Shown: in pieces, positions 1 through 64,000 of the stretch
Layout of the letters: every line of letters begins with the position of its first letter
How positions within the stretch are numbered: the first letter of the stretch is position 1
Assembly (NCBI GenBank): GCA_964542785.1
Contig: CAZIUK010000001.1
Coordinates: 261,115-325,114, forward strand
Length of the DNA stretch: 64,000 nucleotides
Origin: an uncultured Planctomycetales bacterium
Lineage (GTDB): Bacteria; Omnitrophota; Gorgyraeia; Gygaellales; Profunditerraquicolaceae
Direction of reading: 5' to 3'
The notes under the pieces: generated by a model
What the model saw: only the letters and a program-made list of their open reading frames with translations
Databases searched by the model: none
What the model was told of the DNA's origin: nothing
Program-made: the position numbers and the translations under genes

Positions 1-1
1 T

Positions 2-292: not shown

Positions 293-336
293 TTTTTACT
301 GTTTATTATTTTTTAAATCAACCTGCGATAAAAAAT

Positions 337-711: not shown

Positions 712-748
712 GTTAAACTCTCTTAAATAATTTTTTAAGGAGGTAAAG

Positions 749-1249
749 GTGGAAGCTATAGATGTCTTGTTAAAAAGAAGAAGTATTCGCGTGTTTAAAG
801 AAGAGTTGATAGAAAGAAAAGAATTAGAAAAAATAGTTGAGGCAGGCAGGTTTGCTCCTACAGCAAGGAATGTTCAACCTTGGCAATTTGTAGTTGTAAC
901 TAATAAAGATACGCTTAAAGAGTTAGCCGTATTAGCAGATAATGGAAAGTTTTTGGCAGGGGGTGCTGCTGCTATAGTTGTCTTATGTTTGGATACTAAG
1001 TATTACCTTGAGGATGGTTGTTCTGCAACGGTAAATATGCTAAATGCTGCAGCTTCATTAGGGATAGCTTCTTGTTGGGTGGCAGGTGATAAAAAAGAAT
1101 ACTCTTCAGGGGTCTTAAAATTATTAAAAGCTCCGGAAGGCTTTAAGCTGATTAGCATAATAGCGTTAGGTTATCCTAAAGAAGAGAGCGCTTTTAGAAA
1201 AGCAGAAAAGAAGCCACTTCAAGATATCTTACGTTGGGAGAAGTTTTGA
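749..1249 (+). CDS. nitroreductase-family protein
   Basis: RRSIRVF...ARNVQPWQFVVV nitroreductase signature. GTG start with an AAGGAGG Shine-Dalgarno at 735-741. Confidence 0.7.
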   Translation: MEAIDVLLKRRSIRVFKEELIERKELEKIVEAGRFAPTARNVQPWQFVVVTNKDTLKELAVLADNGKFLAGGAAAIVVLCLDTKYYLEDGCSATVNMLNAAASLGIASCWVAGDKKEYSSGVLKLLKAPEGFKLISIIALGYPKEESAFRKAEKKPLQDILRWEKF

Positions 1250-1500
1250 TGGTTTATCTTTACCGGGGCGGTTGTCTCTTGCCTTTTTTAATATTCTTTA
1301 ACCTTTTCTTTGGAAGAATATTTTTTAATTTTAAGTTATGGTTGATTATAGAAGGGGTTTTAATACTTATATTCTTACTTTATTCATATATTTTAAGCAA
1401 AAAGTTACTCTCTGGGGTAAATAACCTGCAAAAAAGAAGCGGGGTTATAGATGTAGAGGCAGAGGTTGTAGATAAAAATAAAGATAAAGGCATAGAATAA
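1248..1500 (+). CDS. small hydrophobic membrane protein (hypothetical)
   Basis: ATG overlaps the TGA of the upstream gene (TGATG). Two predicted TM helices. No homology recognisable. Confidence 0.25.
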
Positions 1501-1519
1501 AATAAAAGGAGGTTGATCT

Positions 1520-3634
1520 ATGTTTGGTTTTGATTTGTTGATTTTAGCTCCTGTAGGCTCAATAGCAGCGCTTATGTTTGCTGCGTATCTTGCTATGTTT
1601 ATAATGAGAAAGAGCGAAGGAACAGATAGGATGAAAGAGATTGCCTTGGCAGTGCGCATAGGGGCTAATGCTTATCTAAAAAGACAGTATCTAGGTGTTT
1701 CGATATTTTTTGCAATAGTATTTTTTCTTCTTTTAGTATTGGCATTTAAAAATTATCTTGTTATATTTGTACCTTTTGCGTTTTTAACCGGAGGGTTGTT
1801 TTCAGGGCTCTCCGGATTTATCGGTATGACTATAGCCACGCAGGCCTCTAACCGCACTGCAGCAGCAGCACAGGAGAGCTTAAACTCAGGGCTTAGAGTT
1901 GCTTTTTCAAGCGGAGCTGTTATGGGGTTAACCGTAGTAGGCCTTGGGCTTTTGGACTTAAGTATCTGGTATTATTTTTTAAACTGGTATTATTCTCATA
2001 ACCCCACACCTTTGGGGATAGATAAGATTACCGCAATAACTTCAACTATGCTTTGTTTTGGCATGGGCGCAAGCTCACAGGCACTCTTTGCAAGGGTTGG
2101 GGGAGGAATCTTTACTAAGGCAGCGGATGTAGGGGCAGATCTTGTAGGAAAGGTAGAGGCAGGCATCCCGGAGGATGACCCAAGAAACCCTGCTGTGATT
2201 GCCGATAATGTAGGGGATAATGTCGGCGATGTCGCGGGGATGGGAGCTGATCTTTATGAATCCTATGTAGGCTCAATAGTAGCTACCTCAGCTTTAGGTG
2301 TTTCTGCTGGGTTTGGGGTTGCGGGGGTAACCGTCCCTTTAGTAATGGCAGCTGTGGGTGTTATCGCCTCAATCATCGGAACCTTTTTTGTAAAGAGTAA
2401 GGAAGATGCTTCGCAAAAAGCATTATTAGCTGCTTTAAGAAAAGGCGTATTTATAAGCGCATTCTTGGTTGCGGCAATAGCATACTTTTTAGTAACAGGG
2501 GTTTTAGGGCAGAAGTATATGGGAGTCTATTGGGCGATTATTTCAGGTTTGGTTGCTGGGGTTATTATCGGCTTAGTTACAGAATTTTATACCTCAAGCG
2601 GGTTTAAGCCTACTCAGTCAATAGCTGATTCTTCTCTTACCGGACCGGCGACTGTTATTATAAGCGGACTTGCCGTGGGGATGATGTCAACTGCTATTCC
2701 TGTAATTATTGTAGGAGTAGCAATATTAGCCAGTTTTTTATTAGCTGGAGGAAGAATCCACGACCCCTCAACTTTTAGCGCAGGGCTTTACGGCGTGGCT
2801 ATCTCAGCAGTGGGGATGCTTTCTACTTTGGGGATTACCTTAGCTACTGATGCTTATGGCCCGGTAGCGGATAATGCCGGAGGGAACGCTGAGATGTCTC
2901 ATCTTTCGCCTGAGGTAAGAAAAAGGACTGATGCCTTGGATTCTTTAGGAAATACTACGGCGGCAACAGGCAAGGGTTTTGCAATAGGATCAGCTGCCTT
3001 GACTGCCTTAGCTTTAATTGCCGCATTTAAAGACCAGATTGCTATGCTTGGCAAGGAGATGTCTTTAAGCATTATGAATCCTAGCGTATTAGTCGGATTA
3101 TTTTTAGGCGCTATGCTTCCGTTTTTATTTTGTGCTATGACTATGCGCGCAGTAGGAAGAGCTGCAGGTAAAATTGTAGTTGAGGTGCGTAGGCAGTTTA
3201 AGGAGATAGTTGGTTTGATGGAAGGGAAGACCAAGCCGGATTATGCCCGTTGTGTAAGCATAGCTACCGGGGCTGCACAAAAAGAGATGATTATGCCTTC
3301 TCTTTTGGCGATTATTGCGCCTATTTTAACCGGTATATTAATCGGAGTTGAAGGCCAGGCAGGCCTGCTTATGGGCGCTTTGGCTTCGGGGTTTGTTTTA
3401 GCAGTAATGATGGCAAATTCTGGCGGAGCCTGGGATAATGCCAAGAAATACATAGAAGAAGGGCATCACGGAGGCAAGGGTTCAAATGCGCACAAGGCAG
3501 GAGTTGTCGGAGATACAGTAGGGGACCCTTTTAAAGATACTTCGGGCCCAAGTTTAAATGTTTTGATTAAACTTATGTCTATGGTCTCTATTGTTTTTGC
3601 TTCGTTTATTTTAAAAAATTCCCTATTTAAATAA
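1520..3634 (+). CDS. hppA: membrane-bound proton/sodium-translocating pyrophosphatase
   Basis: 704 aa polytopic protein with [41 protein letters not shown], the hallmark of V-type H+-PPases. Shine-Dalgarno AAAGGAGG upstream. Confidence 0.92.
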
Positions 3635-4424: not shown

Positions 4425-5642
4425 ATGAAAAAGCTGTTTAAGGTTAAAGCAAGAGGGTTAAATGAATCGCTTATTAAGTTTTCGCGCAAGATAACAGATT
4501 GTAATTTTGATACTGATGGTATTAAGGAACTCAGTGGTTTAATTTTAGGAGAGATGAAGTGTTTAGGTTTTGATAAAGTAATTAGTGATAGGATAGGTAA
4601 TTTGATCGGCGTAATAAAAGGATACGAAAATAAAGCCCCTATAGTTATTATTTCGCATATGGATATGCCTCCACTAGAAGAGCGTAAAGTAGAAGCTTGC
4701 CTTGAAAGTGGAATTATAAAATTTAAGGCAGGAATTATTTCTAGCATATATGCGGCTGCATTGATGAAAAGGACATTGTTGCCATTGACCGGGGATTTAA
4801 TTGTTTGTTGTGTGCTTAGAAATGAATGCTGCGATTATGGAATAAAATACCTATTTGAAAACTATTTAAAACCGAAGTTAAAGAAAATGCATGGTGTTAT
4901 TCTTTGTGAGCCGACTGATTTTAATATCTACTTGGGGCATAAGGGCAGGATGGAATATGAGATAATTGTGAAAGGTAGATTGAATAAGAATTTTGTAGAG
5001 AATAGAGGAATGAATATATTAGGGGCGATGTTTCCTTTGATTAACGAGCTGGAAAAAGCTTCAAAACAACTGCCTAATGATTCTAACCTTGGGTATTCTA
5101 ACCTTAGGATTAAGGATGTTAGGTATAGTGGTTATCAGCCGGAAGATGAACTTAGTGAGTTTAGGGTAATTGTGGATAGGGTATTTATCCCTAAGGAAAA
5201 TCTAAATGGTATTCTGGATAAAGCAAAGGCTATAGCCAAGACGGTATATAAAGGAGAATCGGATGTAACTATTAATACTGTGTTGGCGCGGAAGAGAGTG
5301 AAAACTTATTCTGGAGTTGAGCTTGTTTCTAAGAAGGAATTTAAGCCTTGGATCATGGATAGTCATCAGCCGTTTGCCTTGGAGTCGCTTAAAAGCCTGA
5401 CAGAGAATGGATTCAAGTCTGATTTTGGGTATTGGAAGAATATTACTACTGAAGGTTCTTATACTTGTGCTCAGCTGCATATACCTACGATTGGTTTTGG
5501 CGCGGGCTTAGAGGATGTTGTAGATTCAGGCGCTGAATCACTAAGCTTTGACAAATTGGGAAAAGCAGTATATGGGCTAGGGTTGATTGTCCAGAGGAAT
5601 ATAGGAATACCGACATTTGGTTGGAGTTCAGATGAAATCTAA
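4425..5642 (+). CDS. M20-family metallopeptidase / ArgE-DapE-like deacylase (divergent)
   Basis: ~405 aa with an SHMDMPPLEE (H-x-D) metal-binding motif; overall M20-like organisation. Assignment tentative. Confidence 0.4.
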   Translation: MKKLFKVKARGLNESLIKFSRKITDCNFDTDGIKELSGLILGEMKCLGFDKVISDRIGNLIGVIKGYENKAPIVIISHMDMPPLEERKVEACLESGIIKFKAGIISSIYAAALMKRTLLPLTGDLIVCCVLRNECCDYGIKYLFENYLKPKLKKMHGVILCEPTDFNIYLGHKGRMEYEIIVKGRLNKNFVENRGMNILGAMFPLINELEKASKQLPNDSNLGYSNLRIKDVRYSGYQPEDELSEFRVIVDRVFIPKENLNGILDKAKAIAKTVYKGESDVTINTVLARKRVKTYSGVELVSKKEFKPWIMDSHQPFALESLKSLTENGFKSDFGYWKNITTEGSYTCAQLHIPTIGFGAGLEDVVDSGAESLSFDKLGKAVYGLGLIVQRNIGIPTFGWSSDEI

Positions 5643-11632: not shown

Positions 11633-11727
11633 TATTTTACCTAATGAAAAGGCTAACCAACAGTAATGTTGGGGCGCAAAGCTACCTGACCTAAGCTTTA
11701 AGGTTAGAGGGGTTGCCAAAAGGATGC

Positions 11728-51561: not shown

Positions 51562-52017
51562 ATGAGCAAGATTATTGCCTCAAATCATAAAGCTTATAGG
51601 GACTATTTAATTCTTGAGACTATTGAATGCGGGATAGAATTAAAGGGCTCAGAGGTAAAGTCTATTCGCCAGGGAAAGATAAACTTAAGCGATAGCTTTG
51701 CTAGGATAGAAGGAAGCTCGGTAACCTTATACAATACACACGTAAGCCCTTACCTCCAGGCAAGTTATCTTAATGTTGATCCGGTAAGAGAACGCAAACT
51801 CCTCTTGCATAAGAAACAGATAGTAAAGTTAGCCGGCAAGCTTACGCAAAGAGGCTGTACACTTGTTCCGTTAAAGGTATATTTTAATGCCCGTGGTTTT
51901 GTAAAGATAGAACTTGGCCTTGGCCGAGGGAAAAAACTTTATGATAAAAGAGAAGATATTAAGCGTCGCGAGAGCGAGGTAGTTACTCGTCGCATCTTAA
52001 AGAATAGAAGGAAGTAA
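51562..52017 (+). CDS. smpB: SsrA-binding protein
   Basis: Characteristic SmpB sequence; immediately upstream of tmRNA. Confidence 0.92.
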
Positions 52018-52040
52018 TCTTATTTAGAAAGGAAAAATAA

Positions 52041-52437
52041 GGGGGTGAAAGGGCTCGACTTAGGCAGTTGAGTAAGAGTAGCATGCCGCGGACGCATGGT
52101 TAGCCGCGTTAACAACCCGTGCAAAATACAAACGCAAACAACCGTTTGTTTGATGTCAAGCCGATGGCTATGCCATCGTTTGGCATGATGCCAGCCTTCG
52201 CTAACTAAATTAGCGAAGCCTCTATCCGTTCCTATTCCTACAGGGCGGAATAGAGCATTAGTAGGATAGTTTTGCTGTTTATCCTTTGACGGCAGAATGA
52301 AACTATAAAAAGGATACGGCTTATAATGCCCCGCCTTGCAGAGCGTTATAAGCCTAAAGATAAATGCAGGGCTAAGCATGTAGTGGCTTTTATTCGGGTG
52401 TTTAAGGACCGGGGTTCGATTCCCCGCACCTCCACCA
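52041..52437 (+). ncRNA. ssrA: tmRNA (transfer-messenger RNA)
   Basis: 5' end GGGGGUGAAAGGGCUCGAC and 3' end GGACCGGGGUUCGAUUCCCCGCACCUCCACCA form the tRNA-like domain. Directly downstream of smpB. Confidence 0.85.
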
Positions 52438-52445
52438 TTAAATTT

Positions 52446-53528
52446 ATGCAAAAGAATGCAAAACTATTTTTATTCTTTGTATTAGGGATTTTTATCTTTG
52501 GTTGCGCTAGGTTGCCGCTTAAGGAAGAGTTACCCGTATATAATATAAATGGAGCAGGGTATTATTCCCTTCTCTCTTTGTGTCAATTAAAAGGTATGAG
52601 TTTAGATTATGATATCTACGCTCGCCTTGTTAATCTTAGTAAAGATAACCATAGCATAAGTTTTGTCGTTGGAGATAATTTAGTTTTAGTGGATAAAAAA
52701 GCGCTTCTGCTTAAAAATCCTACTGAGATATACGAAGGAAAGATTATGGTTCCTGTGCAATTTAAGGAAGAGGTTATAGCGCCTATCTTTAAGGTTGTTA
52801 AATTGCCTCTTGGTTCTAAGCAAACAAGGGTAATACCTTTAATTAAAAAGGTTGTTATAGACCCTGGGCACGGAGGCCGTGATCCCGGAGCAGTTAGTCG
52901 GAGTGGGTTAAAAGAGAAGGATGTAAATCTTGATATAGCTAAAAACTTAGCCGATTTTTTTAGGAGAGAAGGCATTGAAGTTGTAATGACGCGTAATTCA
53001 GATATTTTTATCCCGTTAGGGAAAAGAGTTGAAATAGCAAATAATTCTAAAGCAGATTTATTTATAAGTATTCACGCCAATGCTAATAAGTCAAGGAGCC
53101 TGCATGGTTTTGAGGTTTATTATGTTTCTACTACAGTAAGCGATCTTACTAGGGGCTCTTATGCTGCTAAGCATTTTAATCTTAACCTTGATAGTTCCTA
53201 CTTTGCCAGTAATTCGCAAGTCTTGAAATCAATACTTTGGGATAAGCTCTATACTTATAATCGGGCAGAGTCTATCTCTTTAGCGTCGGATATCTGTCGT
53301 TCTGCAGGAGAGAGTTTAAGTGTAAGGGTTATAGGCGTAAAAGATGCGCGTTTTGAGGTCTTACGTGGAACTAGGATGCCTGCAGTTTTGGTAGAAGTAG
53401 GTTTTTTATCCAACGCTAAAGAAGAACAGCTTTTAAGAGACTCAAGTTATCGTAAGAAACTCTCCCAGAGTATTTTTAAAGGGGTGTTCGACTATGCCTG
53501 TAAAACTAAAGAGGGTTTTGGTAGATGA
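52446..53528 (+). CDS. N-acetylmuramoyl-L-alanine amidase (Amidase_3, AmiC-like lipoprotein)
   Basis: VIDPGHGGRDPGA and ISIHANA motifs. N-terminal signal with Cys (IFIFGCARL). Start moved to Met 41 so the CDS does not overlap the tmRNA. Confidence 0.8.
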   Translation: MQKNAKLFLFFVLGIFIFGCARLPLKEELPVYNINGAGYYSLLSLCQLKGMSLDYDIYARLVNLSKDNHSISFVVGDNLVLVDKKALLLKNPTEIYEGKIMVPVQFKEEVIAPIFKVVKLPLGSKQTRVIPLIKKVVIDPGHGGRDPGAVSRSGLKEKDVNLDIAKNLADFFRREGIEVVMTRNSDIFIPLGKRVEIANNSKADLFISIHANANKSRSLHGFEVYYVSTTVSDLTRGSYAAKHFNLNLDSSYFASNSQVLKSILWDKLYTYNRAESISLASDICRSAGESLSVRVIGVKDARFEVLRGTRMPAVLVEVGFLSNAKEEQLLRDSSYRKKLSQSIFKGVFDYACKTKEGFGR

Positions 53529-54316
53529 AGCTGATAGGAGTTTTTGATTCAGGGGTAGGGGGCTTGACAGTAGTCAAAGAGCTTATTAAGCAGCTTCCTT
53601 CAGAGAGTTTAGTTTATTTTGGTGATACAGCGCGTGTCCCTTACGGAGCTAAATCTAAAGAGACGGTAACTAAGTTTTCAATAGAGAATGCCTTATTTTT
53701 ATCCAAGCATAATGTAAAGTTAATCTGTGTTGCTTGTAATACTGCTTCAAGTTGCGCTTTGCCTAAATTAAGAAAAAAGTTTAGCGTTCCTATAGTCGGG
53801 GTAATTAATCCTGGCGCTAGGGAAGCAGTTTATGCTACCAAGAATAATCGTATAGGTGTTATAGGGACTAGGGGGACGATTAAGAGCCGAGCTTATGAGG
53901 ATGAAATTAAGAGGCTTAACTCTAAGATTAAGGTTTTTTCAGCAGCCTGTCCTTTATTCGTTCCTTTCGTAGAGGAGGGATGGTTAAATCAGGATGTAGT
54001 TTTAACTGTAGCTAAGAGATATCTACAGCCATTAAAAGACGCAAGAGTAGATACGCTTATTTTAGGTTGCACCCATTATCCTTTACTTAAAAAGGTGATT
54101 AAAAAGGTAATGGGAGAAAAAGTCATTTTGGTTGATTCTGCTAAAGAGGTAGCTATTGAGGTAAAAAAAATATTATCAAGTAAAGGGCTTCTAAATAAGA
54201 GGGGTAAGGGCAGGTTTGATTTTTTTGTTAGCGATAACCCCGAATGGTTTAAGGGATTAGCTGAGAGTTTTTTAGGGAGATTGTTAAAAAAAGTAAAGAA
54301 GGTGAGTAATGTATAA
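53525..54316 (+). CDS. murI: glutamate racemase
   Basis: GVFDSGVGGLTV and CNTAS motifs. Confidence 0.9.
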   Translation: MKLIGVFDSGVGGLTVVKELIKQLPSESLVYFGDTARVPYGAKSKETVTKFSIENALFLSKHNVKLICVACNTASSCALPKLRKKFSVPIVGVINPGAREAVYATKNNRIGVIGTRGTIKSRAYEDEIKRLNSKIKVFSAACPLFVPFVEEGWLNQDVVLTVAKRYLQPLKDARVDTLILGCTHYPLLKKVIKKVMGEKVILVDSAKEVAIEVKKILSSKGLLNKRGKGRFDFFVSDNPEWFKGLAESFLGRLLKKVKKVSNV

Positions 54317-54689
54317 GATAAAAGTTGAGCTTGGTTTTAGCTCTGCACATAACCTAAGGGGTTACAAGGGTAAATGCGAAGAGCTTCATGGGCATAACTG
54401 GAAGGTAGAGGTAGGAGTAGCTTCGAAGAATCTGGATAAGATTGGTATGGTTACGGATTTTGCCTATCTTAAAGATAAATTAAAAAGAGTCTTAGGGGCT
54501 ATGGACCATAAATATTTAAATAAGATTCCTTATTTTAAAAAAGTTAATCCTACGTCGGAGAATATCGCAAAGTATATTTATGATAAACTTTCTTTTTCTT
54601 TATCTAAGGATAACTTAAAGGGGGTAAAGATTTTAGAAGTTACTGTATGGGAGTCTGATAAGGCCCGGGCTACTTATTATGAAGGGTAA
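54309..54689 (+). CDS. queD: 6-carboxy-5,6,7,8-tetrahydropterin synthase
   Basis: CEELHGHNWKVEV motif. Confidence 0.85.
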   Translation: MYKIKVELGFSSAHNLRGYKGKCEELHGHNWKVEVGVASKNLDKIGMVTDFAYLKDKLKRVLGAMDHKYLNKIPYFKKVNPTSENIAKYIYDKLSFSLSKDNLKGVKILEVTVWESDKARATYYEG

Positions 54690-55356
54690 GCTTAAACGCG
54701 CAGTCGTCTTATTGTCTGGTGGGTTAGATTCGGCAACTGTCTTGTATCTAGCCAAGAAGAGAGGTTACAGGATAACCTGTTTAATTTTTGATTATGGGCA
54801 GCGCCATAAAAAAGAGATTAACGCTGCTAAAAGGATTGCCATTGAGGCAAAAGTTGCTTATTGTACGCTTAAGATTAAGTTCCCTTGGGGTGGGTCAAGC
54901 CTATTAGGCAAAAAAAAGATACCCCTGAATAAAAAGTCGTTAGGTAAGAGTATTCCTTCTACTTATGTTCCGGCGAGGAATATTATATTTTTAAGCTTTG
55001 CCCTTTCTTTTGCTGAGGTAATAAAATCCGAAGCTATCTTTATCGGAGCTCATAGCCGGGATTATTCTGGGTATCCTGATTGCCGGCCAAAATTTTTAAA
55101 TGCCTTTAAAAAGGTAGCGGATTTAGGGACTTTTACGGGAATAAGAAAAAGAGGGATTAAGGTTATATCTCCCTTAATAGATAAAGATAAGGCTGATATT
55201 ATAAGATTAGGAATCAAACTTAAGGTCCCGTATAAATATACGTGGTCTTGTTATCAGGGTGGCAGCTACCCTTGCGGGAAGTGTGATAGCTGTTATTATA
55301 GAAAGAAGGGTTTTAAGGATGTAGGTATCCTCGACCCCCTTTTTAGGGATACTTAA
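54679..55356 (+). CDS. queC: 7-cyano-7-deazaguanine synthase
   Basis: AVVLLSGGLDSAT PP-loop; C-terminal Zn Cys cluster CGKCDSC. Confidence 0.88.
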   Translation: MKGKLKRAVVLLSGGLDSATVLYLAKKRGYRITCLIFDYGQRHKKEINAAKRIAIEAKVAYCTLKIKFPWGGSSLLGKKKIPLNKKSLGKSIPSTYVPARNIIFLSFALSFAEVIKSEAIFIGAHSRDYSGYPDCRPKFLNAFKKVADLGTFTGIRKRGIKVISPLIDKDKADIIRLGIKLKVPYKYTWSCYQGGSYPCGKCDSCYYRKKGFKDVGILDPLFRDT

Positions 55357-55388
55357 TCTGCTAAAGCTATTGTGTTAGATAAAAAGGC

Positions 55389-56066
55389 ATGAAAGGTAAA
55401 ATCTCTGAAGTCTTTGATAGTATTCAAGGCGAAGGTCTCTATTTAGGCGAACGTCAAGTCTTTGTGCGTTTTTTTGGTTGTAACCTAAGCTGTAAGTTTT
55501 GCGATACTAAGTTGCACAGCTTTTTAGAATATGAACCAGAAGAGCTCTATAGGGAGCTAAAGAAGTATTGTTATAAAAAACATCATTCAATATCATTTAC
55601 CGGAGGAGAGCCTTTACTGCAGAAAGATTTTTTAAAAGAAGTTCTCAAGCTTACTTTTAAGGATAACTTAAAGAATTACCTTGAGACAAATGGCACTTTA
55701 CCTGAGGCGCTTACAGAGGTAATAGATCATTTGCATATAGTGGCTATGGATTTAAAATTCCCTAGCTCGACCGGTTTGAATCAAGATTTTTGGCAGGCTC
55801 ACCGTGTATTTTTGGAGATAGCCTCTAAAAAAGAGGTTTTTGTAAAGGCGGTTATTTGCGAACACACGCAGGAGAGCGACCTTTTAGATGGGATAAGATT
55901 AATCCAGCAGTCAGCGCAAAACACTATTCTTGTTCTTCAGCCTGATTCCGGGGTAAATAATGGGGCGCTAGAACCTAAGTTAGAAACTTTTAAAAATATG
56001 TGTAGAAGAGAGAGGATAACTACTTGCGTTATCCCTCAGGCGCATAAAATAATGGGGGTTAAATGA
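55389..56066 (+). CDS. queE: 7-carboxy-7-deazaguanine synthase (radical SAM)
   Basis: CNLSCKFCDT (CxxxCxxC) motif. Confidence 0.85.
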   Translation: MKGKISEVFDSIQGEGLYLGERQVFVRFFGCNLSCKFCDTKLHSFLEYEPEELYRELKKYCYKKHHSISFTGGEPLLQKDFLKEVLKLTFKDNLKNYLETNGTLPEALTEVIDHLHIVAMDLKFPSSTGLNQDFWQAHRVFLEIASKKEVFVKAVICEHTQESDLLDGIRLIQQSAQNTILVLQPDSGVNNGALEPKLETFKNMCRRERITTCVIPQAHKIMGVK

Positions 56067-56461
56067 AAGAGAAGAAGTCTTCCTATGAAGGGTTGCAAAA
56101 AAATATAAAAACAATGAGGACTCCAAAGTTGGATGTTTGGATTAATCAGTATCCTGATAAGGAGTATGCTATAACCATAGAGATACCGGAGTTTACTTGT
56201 ATCTGCCCTAAGACCGGCTTGCCGGATTTTGCGGTTATAAAAATTGAGTATTCGCCGGATAAGTTTTGCATAGAATTAAAATCGCTTAAGATGTACACTA
56301 TATTCTTCCGTAATGTTGGGATCTTTCATGAACACCTAGTTAATAAGATAATGGATGATTTTATAAACGCCTGTAAGCCGCGTTGGGTTAAGATGGTCTC
56401 TGAATTTTATCCGCGCGGAGGGATAAAAACTACTGTTGCAAGGGAATATAGAAGAGAATGA
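56063..56461 (+). CDS. queF: NADPH-dependent 7-cyano-7-deazaguanine reductase
   Basis: EFTCICPKTGLPDFA catalytic motif. Confidence 0.88.
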   Translation: MKEKKSSYEGLQKNIKTMRTPKLDVWINQYPDKEYAITIEIPEFTCICPKTGLPDFAVIKIEYSPDKFCIELKSLKMYTIFFRNVGIFHEHLVNKIMDDFINACKPRWVKMVSEFYPRGGIKTTVAREYRRE

Positions 56462-57297
56462 GGATAATAGAAGCTGAAAAGATAACCGAAGTAGTTTCTA
56501 ATCTTTGCCTTAAGGCTAATTATTCTTTGCCTAGCGATGTTATTAAGAAGTTAAGGTTAGCCTATAGAAAAGAGCTGGATAAAAAAGCTAAGTCAGCGTT
56601 AGCGGCGATTATTAAAAATGCTCAGGTTGCTAAGAAAGAAAAATTAGCTATTTGTCAGGATACAGGGTTTCCGATTGTATTTGTAGAAATAGGCCAAGAG
56701 GTAAAAATAAAAGGCGACTTAAAAAAAGCAATTAACCGAGGGGTTATTAAGGGCTATAAAAAAGGAAACTTTAGGGAATCAATTATCCAAAACCCTTTAA
56801 TAAGAAAAAATCCTGTTTATAGCGGAGCGATTATTCATATAGATATAGTAAAGGGAAAGAATATTAAGATAACTGTTATGCCTAAAGGTTTCGGTTGCGA
56901 GAATAAATCTATTCTGAAGATGTTTCTGCCCACAGCTACCATTGAGGAGATCAAGGAATTTATTGTTGATGCGGTAAAGTCTGTTGGGCCTGACGCCTGT
57001 CCTCCGTATATGGTCGGAGTCGGGATTGGCGGCACAGCAGAGGTTGCTTCTTTATTGGCTAAAAAAGCGCTTATTAGAGAGAAGGGGAGTTTGAGTAAAG
57101 AAAACGGAGCTGGGTTATTTTTGGAAAAAGATTTACTTAGTAGGATTAATAAATTAAAAATAGGCCCGATGGGATTAGGTGGTAGGACTACGGCCTTAAC
57201 CGTAAATATTAAAACATACCCGACACACATTGCGGGTTTACCTGTAGCAGTAAATTTAAGTTGCCATGCCTTACGTAGCGCCACTGCTATTTTATAG
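56458..57297 (+). CDS. class I Fe-S fumarate hydratase / tartrate dehydratase alpha subunit
   Basis: ICQDTGFPIVFVEIG motif. Confidence 0.8.
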   Translation: MRIIEAEKITEVVSNLCLKANYSLPSDVIKKLRLAYRKELDKKAKSALAAIIKNAQVAKKEKLAICQDTGFPIVFVEIGQEVKIKGDLKKAINRGVIKGYKKGNFRESIIQNPLIRKNPVYSGAIIHIDIVKGKNIKITVMPKGFGCENKSILKMFLPTATIEEIKEFIVDAVKSVGPDACPPYMVGVGIGGTAEVASLLAKKALIREKGSLSKENGAGLFLEKDLLSRINKLKIGPMGLGGRTTALTVNIKTYPTHIAGLPVAVNLSCHALRSATAIL

Positions 57298-57341
57298 AGA
57301 TACTCAATTTGCTATTGGCAGATTGTTTCCAATGAAGATTT

Positions 57342-57881
57342 ATGAAGATGAATAATAGGCTAAAAAAATACGAATTAGATTTTAAAGATTTAAAAGCAGG
57401 GGATGAGGTTAGTTTCTCGGGTACAATTTATACTGCCCGCGATCAGGCGCATAAAAGATTAGTAAGTGATATCAAAAGAGGAAAGAAAAAGCATTTTGAT
57501 GTCAAAGAGGCAGTTATTTATTATTGTGGTCCAACTAAAACTCCCTCAGGAAAGATTATTGGTTCATGCGGACCAACTACAAGTTCGCGTATGGATAAGT
57601 TTACCCCCTTTTTGTTAAAAAAAGGGTTAAGGGGAATAATTGGGAAGGGAAAACGCTCAAAAAAGGTTGTTGCAGCGATAAAGAAGTATAAGGCAATCTA
57701 TTTTATAGCTTACGCAGGTTGTGGAGCGCTTATCTCGAAATATGTAAAAAAGGCAGAGCCTGCGGCCTATGCTGATTTAGGCCCGGAACAGATATTAAAA
57801 TTAGAAGTTAAGGGGTTGCCTTTAATTGTAGCAGTTGATTCTAAAGGAGAGGATATCTATGGAGAGGACAGACGGACGTAG
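57342..57881 (+). CDS. class I Fe-S fumarate hydratase beta subunit
   Basis: FumA C-terminal-domain homology; conserved pairing with the alpha subunit. Confidence 0.75.
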
Positions 57882-58572
57882 TAAGGATAAGCTAAGAAGG
57901 GTTTTAATTACACGTAATTTTAATAAATACGCTGAAGGTTCTTGCTTGATTGAATTAGGGAATACTAAGGTTGTATGTACTGCTTCAGTTGAAGAGAGTG
58001 TCCCGCCTTTTTTAAAGAATAGCGGGTCCGGTTGGGTTACTGCTGAATACGGGATGCTTCCACGCTCCTGTGATAAGCGGATTCCAAGAGGGAGAGACTC
58101 TGGGAGAACTTATGAGATACAGAGGTTAGTAGGTAGGTCTTTAAGGTCTGTTACTGAGATGAAAAATTTAGGGGAAAGGACTATTTGGATTGATTGTGAT
58201 GTCTTACAAGGAGACGGAGGGACGCGCACTGCCTCAATTACCGGAAGTTTTATCGCTTTAGTTGATGCTTTAGCTAAGATAAAAAAAGAGGGGAAGACGA
58301 AGAATATCCCGATAAAAGATTATGTTGCTGCAACTAGTGTAGGTATAGTTAATAACGAGCTTTTGCTTGATTTGTGCTATGAGGAGGACTCAAAGGCTGA
58401 AGTGGATATGAATATAGTTATGACCGGAAGTGGAGAGTTTATAGAGATTCAAGGGACTGCTGAGAGGGCATCTTTTTCTAAGGAGAAGATGGATAAGATG
58501 CTGGGGTTAGCAAAAAAAGGGATTGAAGATTTATTCTCTTTTCAGCGTAAATTCGTCGGAGATCTTATATAG
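57859..58572 (+). CDS. rph: ribonuclease PH
   Basis: [17 protein letters not shown] motif. Start at the internal Met. Confidence 0.88.
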
Positions 58573-58611
58573 GGATACCTAATTTGCTATTGGTAGGGTA
58601 TTCCTAATTTT

Positions 58612-59223
58612 ATGATGGAGTTAATAGTAGCTACAAAAAATAATAAGAAACTTAAAGAGATAAAGGCTATCTTAAAAGGACTAAACCTTAAAGTTACTTC
58701 TCTGCTGGATTGTAAGGAGAAGATAAAGATAATTGAAAATGGCAAGACTTTTAGCGAGAATGCCATAAAAAAAGCGGTTAAAGTAGCCAAGTTTACCGGA
58801 AAATTATCTTTAGGAGAGGATTCCGGGCTTTGTGTAGATGCCTTAAATGGTGCACCGGGGGTATCTTCAGCGCGGTTTTCAGGAAAGAACAAGAGCGATA
58901 TTCGAAATAACCTTAAGCTTCTTAAGTTTTTAAAAGGGATACCGTTAAACAAAAGAAAAGCTTATTATCTTTGTGCAGTTGCGCTTGCGGATAAGAGTGG
59001 TTTGTTAGGGGTTGTAGAAGGAAAGTGTTTTGGTAGGATAACCCTTGCGGCTAGAGGCAAGAATGGGTTTGGTTATGACCCGCTTTTTTTAATACCGAAA
59101 TACAATAAGACTTTTGGTCAACTTAGCCAAAAAATAAAGCATAGTATGAGTCATCGTTATCATGCCTTAAAAAAAGTCCACAAGGTTATTGAGAATTATA
59201 TTGTTAAGAAGTTAGAGGATTGA
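58612..59223 (+). CDS. rdgB: non-canonical purine NTP pyrophosphatase (RdgB/HAM1)
   Basis: LIVATKNNKKLKEI N-terminus; Ham1 fold. Confidence 0.85.
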   Translation: MMELIVATKNNKKLKEIKAILKGLNLKVTSLLDCKEKIKIIENGKTFSENAIKKAVKVAKFTGKLSLGEDSGLCVDALNGAPGVSSARFSGKNKSDIRNNLKLLKFLKGIPLNKRKAYYLCAVALADKSGLLGVVEGKCFGRITLAARGKNGFGYDPLFLIPKYNKTFGQLSQKIKHSMSHRYHALKKVHKVIENYIVKKLED

Positions 59224-59241
59224 TATAATAATTTTTTGTTG

Positions 59242-59316
59242 CGGGGCGTGGCTCAGTTTGGCTAGAGCGCTTGCTTTGGGAGCAAGAGGCCACAGGTTCA
59301 AGTCCTGTCGCCCCGA
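59242..59316 (+). tRNA. tRNA-Pro (anticodon TGG)
   Basis: Cloverleaf with a C1-G72 acceptor, anticodon loop UUUGGGA, T-arm ACAGGTTCAAGTCCTGT. CCA not encoded. Confidence 0.8.
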
Positions 59317-59348
59317 CTAAACTTAAGTTAGAGTAAAATAAAGGAGGA

Positions 59349-59810
59349 ATGATGATAAGAGGTATTTTTGTTTTATTCTTTATTCTTTTTTCGTTTACCT
59401 GCGCCTTATCAGGCGAAGTTATTTCCAGGGAGGCTGATAATTATTATGCAGAGGGCGTAAAACAGCAAAAAGGGGATAATTTTCTCCAAGCAGATACCTT
59501 TTATCAGAAAGCTTTATTAGTTGATCCCTCTAACCTAAAATTAAAGAGGAGTATTCTTAATAATTACGGAGCAATGTTGGGCCAACAGGGCTTTTTAGAT
59601 GAGGCTGAAGAGAATCTGCTTGAGTCTCTTAGGATAGACCCTAATTATCTTCCCGCAAAGTTGAATTTAGGTTTTATATATGAACAACGTCGTAGCGAGT
59701 TAGAGTCTATAAAATATTGGTTACAAGTACTTCAAATTAATCTTGATGATATTAAGCCTAAAGGGTTTGTTTTAGGTGAACTTGAACCGGAAAGTAGTGT
59801 TGGTAAGTGA
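59349..59810 (+). CDS. small secreted TPR-repeat protein
   Basis: Signal peptide plus three TPR-like repeats. Confidence 0.55.
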   Translation: MMIRGIFVLFFILFSFTCALSGEVISREADNYYAEGVKQQKGDNFLQADTFYQKALLVDPSNLKLKRSILNNYGAMLGQQGFLDEAEENLLESLRIDPNYLPAKLNLGFIYEQRRSELESIKYWLQVLQINLDDIKPKGFVLGELEPESSVGK

Positions 59811-59820
59811 TTTTTAGTCT

Positions 59821-59894
59821 GCGCCTGTAGCTCAATAGGATAGAGCAACTACCTTCTAAGCAGTAGGTTGGCCGTTCGATTCGGCCCAGGCGCA
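59821..59894 (+). tRNA. tRNA-Arg (anticodon TCT)
   Basis: GCGCCTG acceptor, anticodon loop CUUCUAA, T-arm GGCCGTTCGATTCGGCC. Confidence 0.8.
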
Positions 59895-59918
59895 CTAGAT
59901 ATTAAATTTTTTTAAGAT

Positions 59919-61130
59919 ATGCGTAGAAAAATTGAAAAGGCTTTAGGTTTTTTTATACTCTCTTCGGCTATTATTTATGCTTTAGTTTATCTCTTTTTAG
60001 TCGTTGTAGGCCAGGCAATATTAACTAATCAGATTCAGAGGATAACCCATAAAAAAACAACTATAAGGTATTTTTCTATTACTCCTACTTTAAGGATAGA
60101 TATAAAAGGTCTTGATGTGCAGGGGTTGGTAAAGTCTTCTAAAGTATCCGCTTCTATTAGCGTTGTAAACCTCTTAAGAGGAAGGGTAGTTTTTCGTAAT
60201 TTAACCTTTATACAGCCAGAGTTTTTTATTAATAAGACTCCTCCCGAGGTAGCTAAGCCTTCTATTTATTCTGTGACTATAAATCCGTCAGTAAATTCTC
60301 CTCTTGGTTTTAAAGAGGCAAGGCCAGTATTTTTTGGTATTCTTCGTCTTGATATTAGGGATGGCAAGATAATTTTTATTGACCAGACAATAAAGTCAGG
60401 TAGTATTAAGATATCGGCAGAGGAGATCTTTGCGTATATAAAGAATTTTTATCTTTACCCTGTTTTTGCGATAACCGAATTTAAACTTTCTGCTGCTATT
60501 CCTTGGGAAGAAGGTGAAGAGAGGGGCAAGTTAGAGCTAGACGGTTGGATTAATACTGCTAAAGGGGATATGAGTGCTACTTGCAGAATAAATGATATAG
60601 ATGCTATATACCTTTATCCATACTATTCTATTTGGGTAGATTTAAAGAAAGCGCGTATTGAAAAGGCTAAGTTAAATTTTTCAAGCGAAATTCACGGGTT
60701 AAATAACGATGTTACCGCTGATTGTTTTTTAGAGCTTACTGATATGGTACGCAAACCCCTTGAGATAGGGGAGTCTGAGGCTAAGGCTTCAAAGATTACG
60801 AATGCTGTTTTAGATAGATTTAAAGAGCTTGATAATGGAGAGGTTAAGCTTAATTTTAAGATAAAGACTAAGATGGATAGCCCGCAATTTGGTTTTGAAA
60901 ATTTTAAATCTGCCTTTGAAGAGAAACTTATGCGTGGTAGGAGTTCTTTTAAGTCTAGTTTACAGGATTCTTTATCTATCCCGGTAAGAGCAGTTGAAAA
61001 TGGGTTTAGGAGTTTTACGGACCTTTCCCGTGCAATGATTGATGGAGTATTTGCTATCGGTAATCAGCTTAAAGAGTCCGCAGGTAAGGTTATGGATGGC
61101 GATAAGGATAAGCAGGGTAGTGGTAATTAA
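59919..61130 (+). CDS. N-terminally membrane-anchored hypothetical protein (possibly AsmA/DUF748-like)
   Basis: Single N-terminal TM helix, long beta-rich periplasmic region. Family assignment is only a guess. Confidence 0.3.
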   Translation: MRRKIEKALGFFILSSAIIYALVYLFLVVVGQAILTNQIQRITHKKTTIRYFSITPTLRIDIKGLDVQGLVKSSKVSASISVVNLLRGRVVFRNLTFIQPEFFINKTPPEVAKPSIYSVTINPSVNSPLGFKEARPVFFGILRLDIRDGKIIFIDQTIKSGSIKISAEEIFAYIKNFYLYPVFAITEFKLSAAIPWEEGEERGKLELDGWINTAKGDMSATCRINDIDAIYLYPYYSIWVDLKKARIEKAKLNFSSEIHGLNNDVTADCFLELTDMVRKPLEIGESEAKASKITNAVLDRFKELDNGEVKLNFKIKTKMDSPQFGFENFKSAFEEKLMRGRSSFKSSLQDSLSIPVRAVENGFRSFTDLSRAMIDGVFAIGNQLKESAGKVMDGDKDKQGSGN

Positions 61131-61150
61131 CTTTTGACACATATTTTTAT

Positions 61151-61229
61151 GGTGGCTGTAGCTCAATCGGTTAGAGCGTCTGACTGTGGCTCAGAAGGTT
61201 TGCGGGTTCGATCCCCGTCAGCCACCCCA
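61151..61229 (+). tRNA. tRNA-His (anticodon GTG) with the extra 5' G(-1)
   Basis: 8-bp acceptor GGTGGCTG/CAGCCACC, anticodon loop CUGUGGC, T-arm GCGGGTTCGATCCCCGT, encoded CCA. Confidence 0.85.
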
Positions 61230-62894
61230 CTCTTGACGATAAGTCGAAACAGAGTCCTTAAGGGCCACGGTTTCGGCGTTAACCCCGTCCTGATCATCAT
61301 TCAGGTCGGGGTTTTCGTCTTTAAGGGGCATTTCCGGCAGATTCTGGGGCAAACATTCCGGCTGGACGAAAAGGTTCATTTCGATCGTATCATCGTAGAC
61401 AATGATGCTGTGGATCAGCATCTGCAGAAGGTTTTTCTGGATCTCCGCAGGCGCGTCAGCCATGTGTTGCATAATGAGCCGGATATTGCTGTGGGTGAAT
61501 TCACCGGACTGGGCGTTCATCTGAGCGACGTTTCTTTTAGCGCGCAACTTATCCATTTCATCTTCCAGCTCAATAATTTCTCTTTCCAGTTCGGTCATTT
61601 TGGCTTTATAAGTGGTGCCTTTGGCCACAGAGTTTTTAAGCGCCAGATCAAGGAGCTTTTGGGTCTCGCGCTTCAGCAGGGAGAGGCGTTTGTCTTTTTC
61701 TTTCATCTGGGCATCAATCTTATCAAAGGTCATTTGAGCTTCTTGGATCGCGTTGCCGATGGCTCTATAAATAACTTCCGCGTTTTCAGAAGCTTGTTTG
61801 AAATATTTAATGACCGCTTGGTCAAGACCGTTTGCGGGAATCCGGTTGTAATCACATCCCAATCCTTGTCTGGATCGACCGCATTCGTAATAGAAAAACT
61901 TCTTTTTATCCCGCCCGCTTGAATGCACTGAAACCAGATGGCTTCCGCATTTCCCGCATTTAATTAATCCCGATAGTAAAAACTTATGATCATGTTTCAG
62001 TGCCCGCAGGCGTTTGCCCGGCTTGCGGGCATTCATAACGTCGTTTGCTTTATCCCACATTTTTTCCTCCACAAGCGGTTCATGTTTTCCGGGGTGCAGT
62101 TCTCCGTTGTATCGAATGTACCCTTTATAAAAAGGATTCTTCAGGATCAACGAGACGCCTTGTTTGCGCCATGTCAGTTTGTTCCGGGTATACACACCGC
62201 GCTTCATCAGCGTTTCAGCGATCTCGACCAGTGATCGATTCTCAGCGGCCATCTCCCAGACGATCTTAAGATGAGGAGCAACCTTTTCATCAAGAACGAT
62301 CTTCTTTGGCTGTTTGCCGTTGGGAAGTTGCGGGCCGTCTTTGACGAGTTTGTATCCGATCGGTGTTGTGCCTCCGACACGGTATCCTTGCCGGACCCGG
62401 GCGATTGCGGAGGCTTTTACGCGTTCGCCGGTTAGTTCTCTTTCAAACGCTGAAAGCAATCCTAGAATTCCAATCACAACCCTTCCAATAGCGGTTGAGC
62501 TGTCCAGATTTTCTCTTACCGAAATAAAATCAATGTCTTTTTCTTTGAAGAGGTCAATCATCGCGTAAAGGTCGCGGGGATTGCGCGTGAGGCGGTCAAG
62601 GCGGAAGAAGATGATTCCGTCAAAGGGGCGTTGCGTTTCGATGCTTTGCAGAATTTGCTGGATTCCCGGACGGCTCAGATCTTTTCCGGAATAACCGTCA
62701 TCGTTAACGATTCCTTTTTTTCCAAAGTCAGCCAGTTCATATCCAAACGCGTCCAGCATGTTCTTGCAGTGATGGGCTTGGGCGTCAAGTGTCGTGTAGT
62801 CGCCCATCGCTTGCTCATCTGTCGAGCATCTCGTGTAGATGATGTACTTTTTCTTTTCTTCAGTTTTGTTATTTAAAATTGGTTTTCTTTTCAT
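61218..62894 (-). CDS. large serine recombinase (resolvase N-terminal domain + recombinase domain + zinc ribbon + coiled coil)
   Basis: Catalytic IIYTRCSTDEQ serine motif; ~558 aa. CxxC...CxxC zinc ribbon (CGKCGS...CGRSRQGLGC); C-terminal coiled coil. The stop and last three codons overlap tRNA-His. Confidence 0.85.
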   Translation of the reverse strand: MKRKPILNNKTEEKKKYIIYTRCSTDEQAMGDYTTLDAQAHHCKNMLDAFGYELADFGKKGIVNDDGYSGKDLSRPGIQQILQSIETQRPFDGIIFFRLDRLTRNPRDLYAMIDLFKEKDIDFISVRENLDSSTAIGRVVIGILGLLSAFERELTGERVKASAIARVRQGYRVGGTTPIGYKLVKDGPQLPNGKQPKKIVLDEKVAPHLKIVWEMAAENRSLVEIAETLMKRGVYTRNKLTWRKQGVSLILKNPFYKGYIRYNGELHPGKHEPLVEEKMWDKANDVMNARKPGKRLRALKHDHKFLLSGLIKCGKCGSHLVSVHSSGRDKKKFFYYECGRSRQGLGCDYNRIPANGLDQAVIKYFKQASENAEVIYRAIGNAIQEAQMTFDKIDAQMKEKDKRLSLLKRETQKLLDLALKNSVAKGTTYKAKMTELEREIIELEDEMDKLRAKRNVAQMNAQSGEFTHSNIRLIMQHMADAPAEIQKNLLQMLIHSIIVYDDTIEMNLFVQPECLPQNLPEMPLKDENPDLNDDQDGVNAETVALKDSVSTYRQEWGG

Positions 62895-63114
62895 CTTTCA
62901 CCAGCCAACCCTATGCCAATCCCAGAGGTAAGTCAAGTCATATCAATAGGTTGTGATTTTAGATAAAATCATGACTTAATTGGTTTTCAAAAGGCGCTCC
63001 CTTAAGCCTTTTACGACGTATTCAGTTTAGTTCCCGATTTTTTTTAGTTTTTTTGGGTTTTTTCCGGGAACTTGGCGAATCGCGTCGTATAGGGCTTTTG
63101 AAGGGAGAAAACTC

Positions 63115-63339
63115 ATGGGGAGGAAAATCGAGCAAAATTTTGAACGGCGATTCGCGGATAGAATCGATGTTGTCTTTAAGGCCAGATCTTTAGAGGGACA
63201 AGAGCGCAAGATTTACAACACAAGAATGAATGAGGCTTTCAAGGCCCTTATGACTGCCGTTCTCGGGCGGGAACCGACACCAGCTGAATTGCTGGGAATT
63301 GTTCCGGTCGTTTTGCCAAAGAGAAAGGGCGGATTATGA
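63115..63339 (+). CDS. element-encoded small hypothetical protein (74 aa)
   Basis: AGGGAG Shine-Dalgarno then ATG; GC-rich codon usage matches the element. Confidence 0.4.
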   Translation: MGRKIEQNFERRFADRIDVVFKARSLEGQERKIYNTRMNEAFKALMTAVLGREPTPAELLGIVPVVLPKRKGGL

Positions 63340-63351
63340 GGGCTGTTTTAT

Positions 63352-63948
63352 TTGAGAGGCACCTTAACTGAGGAGGTGTCTCTTTTGGGGAGCTATCAAG
63401 GAATATTTGAAGAGTGGGAACTTCGGCATGCAAGGGCATTTGTCAGAACGTACCAGTTGAGATTTAAGGCGCTTCAAAAAGAAGGGTTTGAAGATCTTCT
63501 GCAGGAATGTTTGGCACATTGGTTTTTTGTGCGCGATTACTATGATCCGGAAAAATCAGTGCTTTGCAAAACATTCATGAGCAGGGTCATGGAAAACAAG
63601 CTGATGGATATTGCACAAGCAACAAGCCGTGAAAAACGAAAGATTCTTTATCAAAGCGTATCACTTGATGACGTTATGCAGGATGGCGACGGAGATGGTC
63701 TGGATTTCTTAATTGTCGAGGATGAAGAGTTGAAGCGATTCTTTAAGTCTGATTTCGAAGTTGTCATGGCGCGAGCTTTAAAGAAGCTTTCCCGCCGGCA
63801 AAGGGAGTTGTGCCGGTTGGTCAGGGATGAGGGTGCCAGTCTTAATCAGGCGCATAAAGAATTAAACATATCAAAAGGCGCGGTCTACGACGAGGTGCTT
63901 CGTATACGTGCCGTTTTTAAAGAAGAGGGATTGGAACAGTATTTGTGA
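63352..63948 (+). CDS. element-encoded sigma-70-family (ECF-like) sigma factor
   Basis: Region 2 DLLQECLAHWFFVRDYYDPEKSVLCKTFMSRVMENKLMDIAQATSREKRK and region 4 LSRRQRELCRLVRDEGASLNQAHKELNISKGAVYDEVLRIR. The true start may be the TTG at 63385, preceded by a GAGGAGG Shine-Dalgarno. Confidence 0.6.
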   Translation: MRGTLTEEVSLLGSYQGIFEEWELRHARAFVRTYQLRFKALQKEGFEDLLQECLAHWFFVRDYYDPEKSVLCKTFMSRVMENKLMDIAQATSREKRKILYQSVSLDDVMQDGDGDGLDFLIVEDEELKRFFKSDFEVVMARALKKLSRRQRELCRLVRDEGASLNQAHKELNISKGAVYDEVLRIRAVFKEEGLEQYL

Positions 63949-64000
63949 AAATTTAAGGAGAAGGAGCCATGAAAGAAGTCTTTGTTTTTCGTTTTCAGAA

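Follow-up and report, generated by a model that had tools for sequence, protein, structure and literature searches.

A large serine recombinase at the 3′ tip of tRNA-His and the probable left end of a lambda-like prophage in Candidatus Omnitrophota

Introduction

Serine integrases are the main tools for the insertion of large DNA cargo and are considered to avoid tRNA genes. The element considered here occupies positions 61230-64000 of a 64,000-nucleotide (nt) stretch of DNA (the window; positions 261,115 to 325,114 of contig CAZIUK010000001.1, assembly GCA_964542785.1) from an uncultured bacterium of Candidatus Omnitrophota, a phylum for which we know of no cultured phage. It abuts the 3′ end of an intact tRNA-His(GTG) gene and opens with the gene for a large serine recombinase (LSR), the enzyme class used as integrase by phages such as TP901-1, A118/LI, SPbeta (SprA/YokA), phiC31 and Bxb1. 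The window LSR has the same architecture as these phage enzymes, that is, a catalytic domain with a serine nucleophile, a recombinase domain and a zinc ribbon; likewise, the gene lies at the prophage end beside the attachment (att) site, which would be short, as in phage LSRs (about 40-50 bp, with a 2-nt crossover), and leave little duplication. The P-type and B-type arms of phage LSRs differ in the position of an outer motif (PMC3783163), and a similar offset is suggested by one P-type arm of the family described here. Whereas these phage LSRs target a protein-coding gene, the window LSR targets the 3′ tip of a tRNA gene, and the 3′ end of its open reading frame (ORF) overlaps the att site. 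Its best match among 50,697 GenBank phage records has at most 30% identity, and no cognate directionality factor is known for it.

According to a 2026 survey, RNA targets are favored by tyrosine integrases (PMC13626063). Tyrosine-integrase elements at tRNA genes (P4-, P22- and HP1-type; Islander/TIGER) share several traits with the element in the window: integration at the tRNA 3′ end with the tRNA left intact, an integrase gene beside the tRNA, foreign base composition, and sister clades residing at different tRNAs. They differ in enzyme family and chemistry, and also in the displaced fragment, which is 20-50 nt long and starts from the anticodon loop or T-loop, compared with at most ~13-17 nt at the 3′ tip here. 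The use of transfer RNA or transfer-messenger RNA (t(m)RNA) genes by serine integrases (S-Int) is without earlier report according to the TIGER survey, which counted 14/297 such cases and held that proof was needed (Mageeney et al. 2020, PMC7192596); an earlier note on the window, made from the sequence alone, agreed with this in regarding LSRs as unusual at tRNA sites. As in that survey, the use of t(m)RNA genes is a computational inference here, but the loci described here form a coherent family, ~80 in number, at six tRNA species with a shared phage arm.

An integrase ORF that extends over its att site, so that integration rewrites the 3′ end of the gene, is known from Mx8 IntP and from SSV-type integrases (PMC6070905, PMC4383910). 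These are tyrosine recombinases, whereas the present family consists of LSRs in which a few to ~38 terminal codons would be affected. Lambda-like siphoviruses, finally, share their morphogenetic module (gpA terminase, gpB-type portal, J-type central fiber) with the closest relatives of the window element; they carry a tyrosine rather than a serine integrase, and the early region of the present element is distinguished by a sigma-like gene and an HTH_36 initiator.

Results

Insertion at the tRNA-His 3′ end

The features at the junction are as follows.

61151-61229, plus strand: intact tRNA-His(GTG), the integration target and B side of attL
61229/61230, no strand: homology breakpoint with the empty site, from alignment to two empty-site loci (L258 and L260)
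61218-62894, minus strand: LSR (integrase), 558 amino acids (aa), from the ORF map, Pfam and Protein Data Bank (PDB) matches
59919-61130, plus strand: host flank gene for a DUF748 protein of 403 aa, the last host gene ahead of tRNA-His

The tRNA gene is well formed, as the earlier note had it: ARAGORN places tRNA-His(gtg) at 61152-61229 and the Rfam tRNA model matches 61152-61226 (65.7 bits), while direct reading of the sequence adds G-1 at 61151, a typical trait of tRNA-His, and a genome-encoded CCA. A metagenome scan with the flanking DUF748 protein returned two loci, one of which (L258) is an empty site, with tRNA-His followed by AT-rich host sequence in place of the LSR. The matching NCBI contig (L260), from the Candidatus Omnitrophota metagenome-assembled genome (MAG) GCA_049275655.1, is collinear with window positions 51577-59316 and 59821-61229 at 88.5% nucleotide identity, and its alignment ends at 61229, the last A of the tRNA CCA. 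Beyond tRNA-His it continues at 30-36% GC with housekeeping genes of the host, among them those for a methyltransferase, an ABC transporter, glutamate dehydrogenase and ClpB. This match also places the host of the element in Omnitrophota. The DUF748 gene (PF05359 at 45.9 bits, under the curated cut-off of 50) is syntenic in both empty-site relatives at 88-89% identity, and the 3′ half of the window tRNA-His is identical to that of the empty-site tRNA-His. The empty tRNA-His site in a related genome that the earlier note had named as a check thus exists.

The same element also occurs elsewhere. Elements of 92-95% identity adjoin tRNA-His in other hosts with differing tRNA bodies and flanks, and a phage of the type found on IMG/VR contig L057 sits at the DUF748-tRNA-His locus of another host (226-kb contig) whose tRNA body is different.

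Base composition changes at the tRNA from 38.1% GC in the host part (1-61150) to 45.9% in the element part (61230-64000); host windows of equal length have a mean of 38.1 ± 1.6% and a maximum of 42.1%, and in 400-bp windows the GC fraction is 0.35-0.40 before 61000 and 0.40-0.52 after it. The tetranucleotide distance to the host profile is 0.040 for the element, whereas host windows have 0.0154 ± 0.0025 (maximum 0.022). A genuine shift, well beyond host variation, is therefore present; the earlier note, which had estimated it by eye as mid-30s to ~50%, was right about the switch and overstated its size. Because an empty site exists in a relative, the same element is present in other hosts and the composition is foreign, the element is an insertion at the tRNA-His 3′ end, as the earlier note had proposed.

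The integrase and its family

All three diagnostic Pfam domains of the 558-aa protein score above curated cut-offs: PF00239 (E 3.5e-30, residues 18-170), PF07508 (E 1.4e-16, residues 204-288) and PF13408 (E 1.6e-13, residues 306-365). The protein carries the motif YTRCSTDEQ, with Ser24 as the nucleophilic serine. In the PDB it matches by sequence the catalytic domain of TP901-1 integrase (3bvp, E 3.9e-23); further matches are to SPbeta integrase YokA, over query residues 74-499, and to the C-terminal domain of A118 integrase (4kis, residues 198-341). For the coiled coil that the earlier note lists, and that LSRs carry within the zinc-ribbon domain, the candidate region is residues ~385-475, which, read by eye, are rich in E, K, L and Q and comprise two helix-like runs split by NSVAKGTTY. 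By its sequence, this three-domain architecture (catalytic, recombinase, zinc ribbon) is that of a large serine recombinase; the opposite-strand LSR of the earlier note therefore stands. The gene overlaps the tRNA by 12 nt, comprising the acceptor 3′ strand and CCA: read on the opposite strand, 61218-61220 gives its stop codon TGA and 61221-61229 its last codons W-G-G, which bears out the earlier note's claim that three terminal codons and the stop are made of tRNA-His sequence.

Relatives of the LSR are numerous. Scans yielded 46 loci in GTDB genomes, nearly all labeled Omnitrophota, and 40 loci in IMG/VR, at 53-98% identity; in GTDB representative genomes the relatives reach at most 62% identity. 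In Omnitrophota prophages, the 3′ end of a tRNA adjoins the homologous LSR at some 80 loci, and almost every locus that reaches far enough shows a convergent tRNA whose 3′ end lies at or inside the 3′ end of the LSR gene. The targets comprise tRNA-His, Asn, Gln, Ser (three anticodons), Glu and Arg, with ORF-tRNA overlaps of 10-12 nt in the His clade and 15-114 nt elsewhere. A neighbor-joining tree sorts the LSRs according to their tRNA species, with a single cluster for the enzymes that target tRNA-His. This cluster includes the window LSR, which is full length and as long as its relatives. This LSR family is large and uncharacterized and apparently specialized for tRNA tips.

The att site and the position of the crossover

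The following features make up the att region.

61205-61250, no strand: putative attL, from the empty-site breakpoint and the conserved phage arm
61205-61210, no strand: T-loop hexamer GGTTCG, part of the putative attL
61223-61228, no strand: proposed crossover zone, from comparison
61233-61238, no strand: phage-arm motif TTGACG, in the conserved arm
61245-61250, no strand: phage-arm motif CGAAAC, the inverted T-loop hexamer, in the conserved arm

Loci that share a phage flank differ within the tRNA. The phage flanks of contigs L056 and L057 are identical, yet their acceptor strands read CACTCAC and CAGCCAC; in another such pair, L010 and L011, the acceptor strands are TAGCCAC and CATCCAC, each pairing with its own 5′ strand. 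The window and L057 have near-identical flanks but differ in the T-stem and acceptor 3′ strands, which pair with the 5′ strand of the respective host, and T-stems co-vary with the host across the His-clade loci. That differing, host-paired strands stand beside the same phage flank argues that these parts of the tRNA are host-derived. All His-clade junctions have just one stretch in common, CACCC, which comprises tRNA positions 70-74 and corresponds to window positions 61223-61227. A phage whose LSR is 58% identical to that of the window was found 99.98% identical in two contexts, which diverge 13 nt into the tRNA, and the two contexts give its LSR ORF different lengths, 557 aa and at least 586 aa.

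One locus shows a duplication directly. Contig L263 (IMGVR_UViG_3300035537_000177, positions 1-3014 and 15881; also L066), which carries this phage, holds a tandem array at one tRNA, in the order intron-interrupted host tRNA, second LSR (532 aa), 14.4-kb element and phage LSR. The 14.4-kb element, whose cargo comprises a helix-turn-helix (HTH) gene, Prim-Pol/DUF5906, a type III restriction-modification (RM) system with res fused to an S24 peptidase, and Fic, is bounded by a 17-nt direct repeat, GCCCGGGGAGCCAATTT, consisting of 13 nt of tRNA 3′ end plus 4 nt; this is the only duplication directly seen in the LSR family. The intron of the host tRNA is of group I (Rfam RF00028, 86 bits, L263 1182-1416), with GIY-YIG and HNH ORFs nearby. 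L066 was also considered as an attP form and rejected, the rest of that contig being the tandem array.

On the phage side, 41 distinct arms from all clades, beside six tRNA species, were aligned. Irrespective of the tRNA, the arm is conserved out to +21, with the consensus T[G/T]GAC[G/A] over +4 to +9 and CGAA[A/C]C over +16 to +21. Third codon positions occur at +4, +7, +16 and +19, the last three of them in fourfold-degenerate codons, and these are nonetheless near-invariant (T at +4 and A at +7, each in 37/41 arms; C at +16 in 38/41; A at +19 in 41/41), while the third positions further in, +22, +25 and +28, carry ~0.2 bit. Near-invariance at synonymous positions argues for a constraint at the DNA level. 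The spacing from T-loop to arm is 23 nt in 28 distinct attL sequences, and in the single P-type arm seen, GGTTCT lies 6 nt further out (29 versus 23 nt). In LSRs the motif of the zinc-ribbon domain is shifted by 5 bp between attP and attB (PMC3783163), and the P-type offset resembles that shift. The centers of symmetry fall between tRNA positions 71/72 and 74/75, window 61224-61228. From these comparisons we infer a crossover within the last ~7 nt of the tRNA, at positions ~70-75 (61223-61228).

The alternative with the best prospects is the classic tRNA geometry, in which the crossover would lie in the T-loop or more 5′, the tRNA 3′ sequence carried by attP would measure ~20-35 nt, a long displaced tRNA fragment would be found at attR and the integrase ORF would be borne wholly by the phage. 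A T-loop-centered site would place both attB half-sites in conserved tRNA sequence, and the LSR stop codon falls exactly at the junction of T-stem and acceptor stem; G-U wobbles in L058 and L011 are what a foreign strand would be expected to show. Three loci point the same way. In L061 (11630-11704) the acceptor 3′ strand, CGCCTAC, does not pair with the 5′ strand GTGGCTA and the LSR ORF extends 57 nt into tRNA-His, which fits a more 5′ crossover and could reflect either a damaged target or a different crossover position. In L013 (11658-11816) an intact tRNA-His is followed by a 48-nt hairpin-containing spacer, found nowhere else among the fetched loci, then by a foreign tRNA-His 3′ fragment of 33 nt and the LSR. 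In the last ~150 nt of L075/L165 (IMGVR_UViG_3300029288_006109) the LSR abuts a tRNA-Asn 3′ fragment that starts in the anticodon loop, with no intact tRNA called there; a second element with an anticodon-loop crossover may have inserted upstream in the same tRNA. The fragments at L013 and L075 span 33-42 nt, which a crossover at the tip would not account for. At all three loci the site could be shared with other elements, or the crossover of some lineages could lie more 5′. We nevertheless regard the classic geometry as unlikely for the window element. The host-paired differences beside shared flanks run counter to it, since serine recombinases exchange at a fixed dinucleotide and host-matched variation 3′ of the crossover would be unexpected, and the one duplication directly seen starts just 13 nt from the tRNA end.

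Besides the three loci, further points weigh against a crossover at the tip and against the wider prophage interpretation. The crossover is placed by comparison, not from a His-clade attP/attB pair, and the P-type spacing comes from one example. The arm motif is coding (tail S-x-x-R-Q-x-W), so that its conservation could partly act at the protein level. The attR of the window element was not seen in its own copy, which covers 2.8 kb plus a 2-kb extension; the 30,979-bp contig of a relative holds no tRNA copy of 12 nt or more and ends in HsdM. No recombination directionality factor or repressor was identified, the former not having been specifically tested for, and the completeness and activity of the window's own prophage copy are judged from its relatives. 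Other routes to attR gave the same result, and none showed an attR in the His clade: contig linking joined too many loci, because the phages have 50-mers in common; no tRNA repeat of 11 nt or more lies within 10 kb on the cargo side of any LSR locus; an exact-match scan with the end of the relative's contig found no longer contig; and when attR was sought via the right host flank, the empty-site methyltransferase had no ortholog in the window's samples and ABC-transporter homologs were located in other contexts. If the duplication is as short as proposed, a search for the 23-nt repeat (gggttcgatccccgtcagccacc) would miss this genuine element. The classic rebuilding of the tRNA end, put forward in the earlier note, accordingly holds as far as insertion at the tRNA end is concerned, whereas a long attP-supplied segment repeated at attR probably does not apply (exchange in the last ~7 nt; one conflicting locus).

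Cargo of the element

The part of the element beyond the integrase gene comprises the following features.

62895-63114, no strand: divergent intergenic region of 220 bp, between the integrase and the rightward block
63115-63339, plus strand: 74-aa ORF, first rightward gene, from the ORF map
63352-63948, plus strand: 198-aa sigma-70/extracytoplasmic function (ECF)-like protein, weak match to PF07638
63969-64000, plus strand: 101-aa ORF, only the start of which lies in the window

These co-directional ORFs are present as the earlier note had described them. The intergenic region presumably carries regulatory signals; a scan of 61000-64000 for promoters (consensus) and terminators returned nothing above chance. 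The 74-aa ORF has no Pfam or PHROG match, and its position is conserved in L056 and L057. The sigma-like protein scores 21.9 bits with PF07638 (cut-off 21.1), with its r2 and r4 regions slightly under their cut-offs, and its L057 ortholog matches PHROG 1740, 'RNA polymerase sigma factor' (E 1.7e-12).

Logan contigs L004 and L005 extended the element by 2 kb, to the equivalent of ~66032; exact-protein matches lay on contigs of at most 6.7 kb, and the window's own copy could be read for 4.8 kb (61230 to ~66032). Past 64000 there follow ORFs of 101 aa, 115 aa, 268 aa (HTH_36, replication-initiator-like) and 154 aa; small ORFs with no assigned function are among the genes of the element. The two IMG/VR contigs match it over 61169-64390 (L056, 95%) and 61145-64390 (L057, 92%), and stay collinear at 87-89% identity to the end of the known extension.

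Contig L057 (30,979 bp) was walked end to end. Its early region runs from the LSR through the 74-aa ORF, the sigma-like gene, small ORFs and the HTH_36 replication initiator to a ParB-N6 methylase; then come packaging and head genes (small terminase subunit TerS, gpA-type large terminase subunit TerL, portal, protease, scaffold, major capsid) and tail genes (tail terminator, tube, tape measure, minor tail proteins, J-like fiber), followed by small ORFs and, at the contig end, an HTH gene and HsdM. TerL matches PF05876 (3e-76) and PF20454 (7e-66). Terminase, portal, capsid and tail genes are present in the 92-95% identical relatives L056, L057, L098, L178 and L266. Because such close relatives carry full packaging, head and tail modules, the cargo beyond the window is very probably that of a lambda-like temperate siphovirus, judging by gene content. 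The earlier note had left the cargo open, with phage late genes, a defense system or metabolic genes as its suggestions; the near-identical relatives carry an ordinary lambda-like tailed phage, not a defense or metabolic island.

The right end of the closest relative, L178 (17692-19441, IMGVR_UViG_3300005470_000263), shows a terminator-like hairpin after the tail and small-ORF block, then an HTH gene for an excisionase-like protein of 57 aa and finally HsdM of a type I RM system, which runs to the contig end; this HsdM looks like accessory cargo beside attR.

A defective remnant of a prophage, or a small satellite or island left with no more than integrase and early genes, is considerably less credible than a complete prophage and in our view quite improbable. 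The known part of the window copy amounts to 4.8 kb, and at such sites related LSRs are also borne by small non-phage elements, the 14.4-kb Prim-Pol/type III RM/Fic element in L263 being an example. Against this, all genes read so far are collinear with L056 and L057 (87-95% at the nucleotide level), which continue into complete packaging, head and tail modules, and the LSR has retained the full length of its relatives.

Related TerL proteins occur in many Omnitrophota MAGs, with 83% identity in the genome of Ca. Velamenicoccus archaeovorus. One TerL match (P0124, on a 76.7-kb contig) was examined as the window's own prophage and rejected, as it belongs to an Asn-clade prophage. Another Asn-clade prophage locus, L044 of an Omnitrophota MAG, carries on its cargo side a tRNA with anticodon TTA (ochre suppressor, 'tRNA-Stop' in ARAGORN; 5476-5550).

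The junction and the host side of the window

MAG contigs often break or are mis-joined at tRNAs, but the weakest alternative, by which resident, vertically inherited genes would adjoin the tRNA and the GC shift would be local or mark an assembly join, has next to no probability left and is refuted by the empty site in the 88.5% identical collinear relative and by four independent assemblies (L004, L002, L003 and L096) that span 61229/61230 at 100% identity, so that the junction is not an assembly join, besides a composition far outside host variation and the presence of the same element in other hosts. Logan contig L097 (SRR29782965) has an identical DUF748 gene and ends inside tRNA-His at 61202. 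An empty allele was entertained as the cause of this end and rejected because the break falls 27 nt ahead of the junction; it is probably a graph branch from a co-occurring strain with a different T-arm.

Within 51.6-61.2 kb, the sole part of the window that does not align to L260 is 59317-59820, where a TPR ORF lies between tRNA-Pro and tRNA-Arg and L260 has a different gene of 218 aa; this is a second variable spot between tRNA genes. Elsewhere on the host side are a c-di-GMP-I riboswitch aptamer (11641-11720, plus strand; Rfam RF01051, 64.1 bits), a transfer-messenger RNA (52041-52437) whose 24-aa tag is unusually long and hydrophobic (ANNRLFDVKPMAMPSFGMMPAFAN), and a patch of 45-49.5% GC at ~1801-3400 in a host region averaging 38% GC.

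Discussion

Taken as a whole, we consider it highly likely that a temperate lambda-like siphovirus, of which 61230-64000 is the left end with the integrase, resides at the 3′ tip of tRNA-His(GTG) in Candidatus Omnitrophota, integrated by the following scheme. The LSR would join the phage attP to an attB made up of the tRNA T-arm, acceptor 3′ strand and CCA, cutting the strands at a 2-nt crossover within 61223-61228. The phage would supply just a few terminal, invariant nucleotides of tRNA-His, leaving the tRNA intact, and the duplication at the far end would not exceed ~13 nt; attR would thus hold at most 13 nt identical to ...CAGCCACCCCA, followed by AT-rich host DNA. The zinc-ribbon domain may read the universal T-loop hexamer GGTTCG in attB and its inverted mimic CGAAAC in attP, which would explain how sister clades moved among tRNA-His, Asn, Gln, Ser, Glu and Arg.

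On the host side of such a crossover would lie the stop codon of the LSR gene and the one or two codons ahead of it. With the crossover inside the last codons, the integrase ORF would span the att site, and in the lysogen its C-terminus and stop would be read from the antisense strand of the host tRNA. An ORF crossing att is shown for the 58% identical member of the family; for the window LSR it would follow from the proposed crossover and the position of the stop at 61218-61220.

A more general scheme of tRNA landing can be sketched, which we offer as tentative and hold to be possible rather than probable: T-loop and mimic would be read by the zinc ribbon, exchange in the acceptor/CCA tip would always restore the tRNA, contacts of the recombinase domain with the acceptor would set specificity, and the rewritten C-terminal tail might switch activity or directionality in the manner of Mx8.

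What is gained for the window itself is more modest, in that an 'unknown cargo' is very probably resolved as an ordinary tailed prophage; the value lies in the enzyme. If the reading is correct, a coherent family at six tRNA species would mean that tRNA targeting is accessible to serine recombinases, and the LSRs would form a natural series of enzymes with switched specificity for studies of how att recognition evolves. A duplication of at most ~13-17 nt would also explain why repeat-based finders of prophage boundaries miss attR in such phages. Finally, the family would document a dominant temperate phage lineage of Omnitrophota.

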